A DNA stretch of 64,000 nucleotides from Candidatus Bathyarchaeia archaeon (GTDB taxonomy: Archaea; Thermoproteota; Bathyarchaeia; Bathyarchaeales; Bathycorpusculaceae): contig JAVZLM010000001.1 in NCBI GenBank assembly GCA_038883775.1, positions 64,001-128,000 of the forward strand, written 5' to 3'. Shown here in pieces: positions 26,035-27,196 of this stretch. Position numbers and translations under genes: made by a program. Position 1 is the stretch's first letter; the number at the start of each line of letters is the position of its first letter. The notes under the pieces were generated by a model. That model was not told where the DNA came from, ran no database searches, and saw nothing but the letters and a program-made list of their open reading frames with translations.

Positions 26035-26508
26035 TTGTATGTTCCTAATGCTTCGGTTAAGGTAGAAATAACCAGCCTTGCTGGCGTTCGTTTAGACGTT
26101 AAAAGCATAGCTGAAAGTGTAAATTTTGATGTTAAGGCGAAATTGGAAGAGAAGGAACGCAAAAGCCAAATGGTCATTGTAGATTTCAAACTGTTTTTAA
26201 CAACAAAACCAAGCCTTGTAAAATTTGAAATTGAAGGCATGGCAACCTTAAGCGGAAAGGATGCTGAAATAAACAAAATGTTGGAGGTTGACTCAGAAAC
26301 CAAAGTTCCTTATGTCTTTCAAAGAATTTACCAAACAGCTTTTACAGCCATGTACCTCCTATCCACAATCTTAAATGTGCCACCACCACCTCATGATTTG
26401 CTCTTTTCCCATAAAGAAGGCATTCCAGTCGAAGACGTAACAGTCAAAATAGCCCCAGAAGCTACGGAATCTGTGGAAGTTCAAACTGGAACTGAACAAA
26501 GGGAGTAA
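26035..26508 (+). CDS. Hypothetical protein, SecB-like fold suspected
   Basis: Four alternating beta strands, KFEIEG, then helix and LNVPPPP; acidic tail. Confidence 0.6.
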   Translation: MYVPNASVKVEITSLAGVRLDVKSIAESVNFDVKAKLEEKERKSQMVIVDFKLFLTTKPSLVKFEIEGMATLSGKDAEINKMLEVDSETKVPYVFQRIYQTAFTAMYLLSTILNVPPPPHDLLFSHKEGIPVEDVTVKIAPEATESVEVQTGTEQRE

Positions 26509-26573
26509 TATGGTTCCTTTTTTAATTTGTGTGCTTCAGAAAAATTAATAATTTTAAAAGTTATGGATAAAGT

Positions 26574-26635
26574 GTGGCGGGTGAGTGGGCCTCCACCCGT
26601 TCCGCCATAAAAACCCCGGTGTAGGAGGTGAAAAA
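26574..26635 (+). promoter_or_regulatory. Structured 5' leader / candidate riboswitch upstream of queT
   Basis: Stem TGGCGG(26575-80)/CCGCCA(26602-07), A-rich linker, anti-SD CCTCC(26590-94) complementary to SD GGAGG(26624-28). Confidence 0.5.
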
Positions 26636-27196
26636 TTGAAATTTGACGCTAGAGACATAGCTTTAACAGCAGTTTTTGCAGCTTTATATGCTGTTCTTGT
26701 GGCGATTCAAGGGTTGAGTGCTGCAGCTAGCATCCAACTTCGTTTCGCTGATTGTCTTATTCCATTATCCGCTCTTTTCGGGTGGCCTGCTATTGTAGGG
26801 GTAAGTTTGGGATGTAGTGTTGGCAATGCCGCAACTTCCGCTGCTCTTCCAAACGGTATTTATGATGTCGCTTTTGGACCTATAGCTAATTTGATTGCTG
26901 GTTCTTTGATTTATGTGCTGAGAAATAGACGGCTAGTAGGCTGTGTGATGGGGTCAATGGTTATCGGCGTTTTCGTTGGCAGTTACATTTGGATGATATT
27001 TGGGGCTCCGTCAAACTTTTTTGGCATCGAGTTTCCAGCAGCTTGGCCTATCTGGGTAACAAGTATAGTGAGTATCACTGCAAGCAGTTTAGTGGCAATA
27101 GCAATAATTGGATATGCCCTACTAACAGCCTTAAGCAAACCAAACATCATAGAAGCATTGAAATCAAAGGGACTAAAAGTTGCTGCAGAAAAGTAA
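26636..27196 (+). CDS. queT: QueT-family transporter (ECF S-component)
   Basis: IALTAVFAALY, IQLRFADCL..L, AIVGVSLGC..GN, DVAFG; TTG start 26636 after GGAGGTGA. Confidence 0.85.
   Translation: MKFDARDIALTAVFAALYAVLVAIQGLSAAASIQLRFADCLIPLSALFGWPAIVGVSLGCSVGNAATSAALPNGIYDVAFGPIANLIAGSLIYVLRNRRLVGCVMGSMVIGVFVGSYIWMIFGAPSNFFGIEFPAAWPIWVTSIVSITASSLVAIAIIGYALLTALSKPNIIEALKSKGLKVAAEK

Follow-up and report, generated by a model that had tools for sequence, protein, structure and literature searches.

Conserved Shine-Dalgarno-hiding pseudoknots in archaeal queT leaders are probable riboswitches for preQ0

Riboswitches for 7-deazaguanines have been described in three structural classes. The minimal aptamer of preQ1-I (RF00522) comprises approximately 34 nt, with a P2 helix of 3–4 bp and a family loop consensus, and its structures place the ligand pocket at the P1/P2 junction, where a C residue pairs with the ligand. 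The preQ1-II class, or COG4708/queT motif (RF01054), is built from helices P1–P4 with a hairpin embedded in the 3' loop and, to our knowledge, is confined to Lactobacillales. The preQ1-III class (RF02680) spans approximately 100 nt and combines an HLout pseudoknot with a separate hairpin. We know of very few confirmed archaeal riboswitches (TPP, fluoride) and of none that is archaea-specific or tied to archaeosine. According to a published study, bacterial queT genes sit behind preQ1 riboswitches, and archaea insert preQ0 into tRNA for archaeosine (PMC5372724).

We analysed a 64,000-nt stretch of DNA from a member of Bathyarchaeia, referred to here as the window, in which a sequence-only reading had suggested, upstream of queT, a possibly new riboswitch that acts on translation, senses a 7-deazaguanine and uses an anti-Shine-Dalgarno (anti-SD) pseudoknot. 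This proposal gained support from conservation, covariation and gene association, with the ligand as a prediction. The leader is one copy of a very strongly conserved RNA pseudoknot that can hide the SD sequence and most likely represents an undescribed, archaea-specific riboswitch class. We consider it probable that positions 26575–26638 form the 5' leader of the queT mRNA and belong to a widespread archaeal class whose most likely ligand is preQ0 (7-cyano-7-deazaguanine) or a very close 7-deazaguanine. The features of the leader are listed in Table 1.

Table 1 Features of the queT leader in the window, and loci at which the motif precedes a different membrane protein.
Feature	Position	Strand	Basis or remark
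Promoter-like element, GAAAAA + TTAATAAT	26539–26552	+	Window sequence
BRE-like purine-rich GAAAAA	26539–26544	+	Directly 5' of the TATA-like box
TATA-like box TTAATAAT	26545–26552	+	Read by eye; 31 nt 5' of first conserved G of P1
P1 5' strand GGCGG	26576–26580	+	Covariation, 93 sequences; U26575-A26607 an optional extra pair
L1 start GUGA	26581–26584	+	G26581 and U26582 invariant; candidate pocket residues
Hairpin P2	26585–26596	+	GUGG 26585–26588 with CCAC 26593–26596, plus G26583-C26598; buries part of anti-SD
Pseudoknot 5' strand G-CCUCC-A-C-CC	26589–26598	+	RNAduplex pairing; anti-SD CCUCC is 26590–26594
Junction L2 GUU	26599–26601	+	Between pseudoknot strand and P1 3' strand; candidate pocket residues
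P1 3' strand CCGCC	26602–26606	+	Covariation counts and RNAalifold
Loop L3, A-rich AUAAAAA then CCCC	26607–26617	+	AAA 26611–26613 and CCC 26615–26617 invariant
Pseudoknot 3' strand GGUGUAGGAGGU	26618–26629	+	Overlaps Shine-Dalgarno GGAGGUGA
Shine-Dalgarno GGAGGUGA	26624–26631	+	Within part 26618–26631
queT coding sequence	26636–27196	+	TTG start 26636–26638; 186 aa; stop included
Non-QueT membrane protein	L081:220–915, L100:917–1603, L116:223–924, L118:223–924, L204 (first ORF)		After motif

The archaeal motif resembles preQ1-I in having an H-type pseudoknot on a short P1, in its A-rich loop on the 3' side of P1, in a second helix extending into the SD, and in the control of genes for 7-deazaguanine synthesis and transport; its crossing P1 and loop:tail helices covary, and AAA at 26611–26613 is invariant in all 93 aligned sequences. 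By analogy, we propose that the pocket lies at the P1/P2 junction and contains a C that pairs with the ligand. In contrast to preQ1-I, the archaeal core is longer (26576–26629, 54 nt, or approximately 55 nt, versus approximately 34 nt), its pseudoknot helix has 9–11 bp and covers the whole SD instead of the 3–4 bp of the bacterial P2, its long L1 can form a competing hairpin (termed P2 here), and its loops GUGAG, GUU and AAACCCC are unrelated to those of preQ1-I, which is bacterial. Like preQ1-II, the motif lies upstream of QueT (COG4708) genes, hides the SD in a pseudoknot helix and is proposed to act as a translational OFF switch, but it differs in helix layout (P1–P4 with the embedded hairpin in preQ1-II), has no Rfam match and also controls queC, queE and folE. 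It has in common with preQ1-III the pathway and a ribosome-binding site reached by a pseudoknot-type contact, whereas it again lacks an Rfam match and, at approximately 55 nt, contrasts with the approximately 100 nt, HLout pseudoknot and separate hairpin of that class. A cmscan of positions 26400–26800 against Rfam (E ≤ 10) returned three matches, none of them a riboswitch, and 15 diverse copies of the motif yielded none at E ≤ 1; the view that the motif is distinct from preQ1-I was thus borne out, with no match to preQ1-I, -II or -III. No family in Rfam 15 matches the motif, and in the literature searched we found no description of an archaeal queT, queC or preQ0 riboswitch. As judged by these sequence comparisons, the motif is not a member of preQ1-I, preQ1-II or preQ1-III.

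The open reading frame 3' of the leader encodes QueT (PF06177, E = 1.3e-21 in a Pfam search). The gene stands alone, with a convergent family-B DNA polymerase gene downstream and an STT3/AglB-like gene, a GT4 gene and a 157-aa open reading frame upstream; the last of these (26035–26508, + strand), directly 5' of the queT promoter, had no Pfam match. The parts of the leader named in the sequence-only reading were all recovered. The stem UGGCGG/CCGCCA was accurate to the base (U26575–G26580 with C26602–A26607), CCUCC was located at 26590–26594, UAAAAA at 26608–26613, CCCC at 26614–26617 and the SD at 26624–26631, and the BRE/TATA-like GAAAAA-TTAATAAT could be read before the leader at 26539–26552. 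The loop enclosed by the stem is GUGAGUGGGCCUCCACCCGUU, and GGUGUA separates CCCC from the SD GGAGGUGA. The fold of the window leader taken alone is within chance (minimum free energy, –25.5 kcal/mol; z = –1.46 relative to shuffled sequences, 24 of 200 of which folded as well or better), and its significance comes from comparison with relatives.

QueT was detected in 54 of 61 related genomes. The leader is conserved at orthologous loci: the same motif was found 5' of QueT at 28 of 30 loci of relatives, whose QueT proteins are approximately 45–60% identical, and it is also present in other classes. Of the two exceptions, one locus (L007) ends at a contig edge, and at the other (L022) the motif lies farther 5', ahead of the operon's first gene. 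The consensus reads GGCGGGUGAGUGG..CCUCC(C)ACCCGUUCCGCC, followed by an A-rich stretch, AAACCCCGG, a few bases and (G)GGAGG. Our first covariance model, R1, had its 3' partners one column off, and copies were recovered through sequence conservation; helix partners were paired in 50.3% of cells in the R1 register and in 90.0% when slid by –1. The corrected structure, carried by alignment A4, was used for a second model, R2.

With R1, the genome containing the window yielded a single copy of the motif (E = 2e-25), and a class-wide search at E ≤ 0.01 detected it in 95 of 151 sampled genomes. Six of the weakest matches were judged to be false, leaving approximately 92 credible genomes of the 151. 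One of these six (L130) precedes a 366-aa open reading frame that by eye, with no family search, resembles histidinol dehydrogenase. A phylum-wide search with R2 found the motif in 28 of 151 sampled genomes, of which 15 belong to other classes. When 185,579 species genomes were scanned with a degenerate pattern, at least 120 stretches matched, and among the 80 matches listed most record titles were Bathyarchaeia or Bathyarchaeota. R2 scoring of 22 of these 80 loci identified 14 real matches (37.9–75.1 bits), including the complete genome of Candidatus Bathyarchaeum tardum and metagenome-assembled genomes (MAGs) titled Methanomethylicota, Nitrososphaerota/-ia, Nitrosopumilales, Hodarchaeota and Promethearchaeota (54.8–75.1 bits). 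Eight bacterial pattern matches were attributed to chance, with no R2 match for six and 15–17 bits for two. The motif was found in seven of seven genomes of the class to which the Hodarchaeota- and Promethearchaeota-titled MAGs belong, and it is therefore a trait of that lineage and not contamination. Four copies (L126, L127, L128 and L131) form a divergent sub-type with the tail AAACCCC-AAAA-GGGGG/GGAGGG, in which GG does not follow CCCC; their L2 is CCGCU, and the loop:SD pairing is kept by matching changes.

Alignment A4 contains 93 copies fitted to a model, which, together with the relatedness of the sequences, inflates the shuffle tests reported here. Sequence conservation is very high and most pairs never vary. 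Within P1, columns 8 and 52 hold GC in 61 sequences, AU in 19, GU in 6, UA in 2 and other combinations in 5, and columns 12 and 48 (G26580-C26602) hold GC in 77 and CG in 16, with none unpaired; RNAalifold finds P1 unaided on the alignment. The P2 pair at columns 18 and 40 is UA in 67 sequences, GC in 8, CG in 3 and other in 12. For P1 and P2 together, 91.1% of cells are paired and 67 cells are changed on both sides, a result reached by 0 of 500 shuffles, and controls with slid partners gave at most 64.9%. For P1 and the pseudoknot, 90.0% of cells are paired and 138 are changed on both sides (0 of 500 shuffles), although part of the latter count reflects a one-column register shift between CCUCC/GGAGG and CCUCCC/GGGAGG rather than independent substitutions. 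Distinct pseudoknot variants are CCUUCC/GGAAGG, CCCUC/GAGGG, UCCGAC/GUCGGA, GCCCCC/GGGGGC and GCCCUCC/GGAGGGC. Cognate loop/tail duplexes had a mean energy of –14.92 kcal/mol, compared with –13.24 (s.d., 0.21) for permuted partners, and none of 5000 permutations was as low.

In RNAduplex, the whole 3' half of the loop, beyond CCUCC, pairs with the tail: C26598 with G26618, C26597 with G26619, C26596 with G26621, A26595 with U26622, CCUCC with GGAGG, and G26589 with U26629 as a G.U pair. The loop thereby forms with GG...GGAGG a pseudoknot helix of 9–11 bp, the duplex energy of which in the window is –13.4 kcal/mol before loop penalties; that of P2 is approximately –6.4 kcal/mol. In the alignment, compensatory changes are present in all three helices, P1, P2 and the pseudoknot, which answers the question of covariation in queT leaders and upholds both the suggested H-type pseudoknot between CCUCC and the SD and the suggested hairpin GUGG/CCAC, our P2. 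The other suggested hairpin, CGGGUG/CACCCG, was abandoned, given its need for G26580, the covarying partner of C26602 in P1. P2 and the pseudoknot are mutually exclusive because both use positions 26593–26598. P2 is absent or weak in L125, L103, L107 and L120, and the alternation between hairpin and pseudoknot may not be universal. Two generic features of riboswitches are present, namely a conserved, structured 5' leader with covariation and an expression platform of alternative folds.

All 93 sequences have the same base at 15 positions, and ten of these (G26581, U26582, G26599, U26601, AAA 26611–26613 and CCC 26615–26617) are in unpaired stretches of the helix models and surround the P1/pseudoknot junction. 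In L2, G26599 and U26601 are each found in all 93 sequences and U26600 in 88, and RNAalifold pairs G26581 with U26601 (GU in 93 of 93). Neither mutual information on the alignment nor inspection by eye (GUGGG, GGGU) revealed a partner for the invariant CCCC, which can pair with the SD in the minimum free energy fold of the single sequence. Pairing of CCCC with G26579–G26581 is unlikely, since variants in which G26580 is replaced by C keep CCCC, and GUGAG/GUU was judged by eye not to be a K-turn because tandem G.A pairs are absent.

Conserved unpaired bases and SD occlusion would also suit an operator at which a translational repressor of the 7-deazaguanine regulon binds the leader with no small molecule involved, and validated archaeal riboswitches are rare. 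We regard such a protein operator as improbable: no conserved regulator gene lies beside the motif at the loci read, the motif is the same in distant classes whereas proteins there have diverged to 25–60% identity, and the covariation of two exclusive helices is what a self-contained switch typically shows. An RNA thermometer, or a constitutive damper of translation that needs no ligand, appears very unlikely. The SD is paired both in the minimum free energy fold and in the pseudoknot, and the nearest DNA matches of the window are hot-spring metagenomes, as might be expected for a thermometer; yet the motif is present in hot-spring MAGs as well as in MAGs whose names suggest non-thermal sources (SPRUCE, bog_991 and Candidatus Bathycorpusculum grumuli, the habitats of which, beyond their titles, we presume). 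Such a device would have no need of ten invariant bases in unpaired stretches, and it would leave the strict tie to one pathway unexplained.

Conservation in the alignment of 93 sequences begins abruptly at 26576. For 62 of 92 copies, a crude consensus score placed the start of the best TATA-like 8-mer 28–37 nt 5' of the first conserved G in P1; in the window this score chose a neighbouring AT-rich 8-mer at –23, and TTAATAAT at –31 was read by eye. Given that the TATA-like box lies at a conserved distance and that an archaeal TATA box is usually located approximately 26 nt before the transcript start, we infer from this spacing that the transcript starts within a few bases of P1. Among the sequencing runs matching the window, our search found no RNA run; two runs labelled as metatranscriptomic are probably DNA and match as contigs only. 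In four hot-spring metagenome runs, summed contig depth over 26572–26639 jumps 10- to 100-fold at the motif, and many contigs in these runs stop matching at 26575. This jump likely reflects many community members with a near-identical motif and differing flanks and is not evidence for a start site.

A GTG codon at 26585 opens a frame that continues into queT (203 aa), and the conservation might accordingly be that of an NH2-terminal peptide. The distance from P1 to the start codon, however, falls in frames 0, 1 and 2 in 32, 22 and 30 of 84 cases, respectively, the loop and L3 differ in length by 1–6 nt among copies, and nucleotide conservation far exceeds that of the protein. The SD is moreover kept with a start codon 4–9 nt downstream, and two close relatives, L002 and L003, have ATG where the window has TTG at 26636. 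The leader is not coding, and we give translation from GTG 26585 next to no weight. In L040, L064, L072 and L123, the motif and SD are intact, yet no ATG, GTG or TTG opens the QueT frame where expected, which points to the use of a non-canonical start codon, to a frameshift or to an error in the assembly.

Downstream open reading frames matched QueT in 83 of 88 cases and other ECF S-component families in four more, the 88 being those of at least 100 aa, with ten rows lacking such a frame and three false matches left out. QueC was detected in 40 of 151 class genomes, and in 29 of these 40 the motif is followed on the same strand, 0.3–2.5 kb downstream, by queC, usually in the order motif, queT-like gene, queC. 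In three MAGs (L169, L162 and L224), the motif is directly 5' of QueE-like radical-SAM genes, the best NCBIfam matches of which are QueE families (E = 1e-25 to 1e-35, under the equivalog cut-offs); in L169 it precedes queE-queC. One Nitrososphaerota MAG (G331) carries three copies, one of them before a QueE-like gene that is followed by a gene for GTP cyclohydrolase I (E = 1.9e-34). Of the credible copies that were examined, none precedes an unrelated gene. The genes behind the motif, queT, queC, queE and folE, thus bear out the proposed link to 7-deazaguanine metabolism, and association with one pathway is a further generic feature of riboswitches.

Several further observations concern these loci. 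In G331, the motif-led queE-like gene and folE are followed on the same strand by a gene for DHBP synthase (Pfam) and a lumazine-synthase-like open reading frame identified by eye (L267, G331:C1:20734–23953); GTP is the common precursor behind the queE-like/folE and riboflavin genes of this locus. At five loci (Table 1), the motif precedes a membrane protein of 229–234 aa instead of QueT, with a conserved FIGGPGFITLEIV. Those of L118 and L100 had no Pfam match and that of L118 no NCBIfam match, and these proteins may constitute an unrecognised family of 7-deazaguanine transporters. QueT itself falls into two subfamilies, the window type of 170–190 aa (QLRIADCLIPL) and a shorter type of 157–161 aa (LQFRVAGVLRPAI), represented at L014/L164 (G052), L022/L077 (G060), L046, L065, L068 and other loci. 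The shorter type is the usual one between motif and queC, and Candidatus Bathyarchaeum tardum has both, in the order motif, short queT, queC, long queT.

The genome containing the window is 91% complete and encodes a TGT-family enzyme (551-aa open reading frame, E = 6e-85, C7:21090–22061). In this assembly, the search for QueC gave only four weak PP-loop fragments and no convincing QueC, and QueD/PTPS was not found. Because TGT is present and neither QueC nor QueD was found, the organism probably depends on imported preQ0 and appears to be a QueT-reliant preQ0 auxotroph. TGT and queT are likewise kept in many genomes in which no queC was found.

We favour preQ0 as the most likely ligand because archaea insert it into tRNA as the free base and because the controlled genes make or import it. 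The same architecture might instead recognise another compound, such as preQ1 or queuine scavenged from bacteria, CDG, archaeosine base or a plain purine such as guanine, which we consider possible but doubtful. Known preQ1 aptamers bind preQ0 as well, and the gene association marks the whole 7-deazaguanine pathway rather than one compound; preQ0, preQ1, CDG and other purines are not separable from sequence. The study cited above gives bacterial QueT as predicted to carry preQ1, whereas the free base put into archaeal tRNA is preQ0 and not preQ1 (PMC5372724). The motif also controls queC, the product of which is preQ0, together with queE and folE upstream in the pathway, and end-product feedback on these genes would therefore point to preQ0.

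In the mechanism that we propose for a preQ0 switch, P2 (GUGG/CCAC) would hold the anti-SD when ligand is absent, so that the SD is free and queT is translated, presumably the ON state. Ligand bound at the P1/pseudoknot junction would stabilise the pseudoknot and bury the SD, and translation would be turned off; CCUCC-A-C-CC would pair with GG-U-G-U-A-GGAGG(U) and cover the whole SD. The putative pocket would be drawn from G26581, U26582, G26599, U26601, AAA 26611–26613 and CCC 26615–26617, with one invariant C recognising the ligand's guanine-like face by base pairing, in the manner of preQ1-I, and the A-rich tract and CCCC of L3 presumably lying along the groove of P1 and closing the pocket. 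The ligand-bound state would stop synthesis of the transporter and, in other genomes, that of the products of queC, queE and folE. This reading leaves the control of the distal queC in queT-queC operons by a translational switch unexplained.

On balance, though with little room to spare, we lean toward a broader interpretation: that the motif adds a fourth structural class to the 7-deazaguanine riboswitches, the first to be restricted to Archaea, and is tuned to preQ0 rather than preQ1. It would occur in Bathyarchaeia, Nitrososphaeria, Methanomethylicia and the small class with the Hodarchaeota- and Promethearchaeota-titled MAGs, and would govern the whole preQ0 supply (folE, queE, queC and queT) through alternation between hairpin and pseudoknot right at the 5' end of the mRNA. 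Copies in the complete genome from an enrichment culture of Candidatus Bathyarchaeum tardum (CP122380) make tests feasible. If this interpretation is true, a preQ0 aptamer of approximately 55 nt would add a new fold to the best-studied family of small aptamers and could serve as a ligand-controlled expression tool for archaea. It would also mean that H-type pseudoknots are used convergently in two domains of life, and the motif would provide a genomic marker of preQ0 salvage versus synthesis in uncultured Bathyarchaeia and their relatives.
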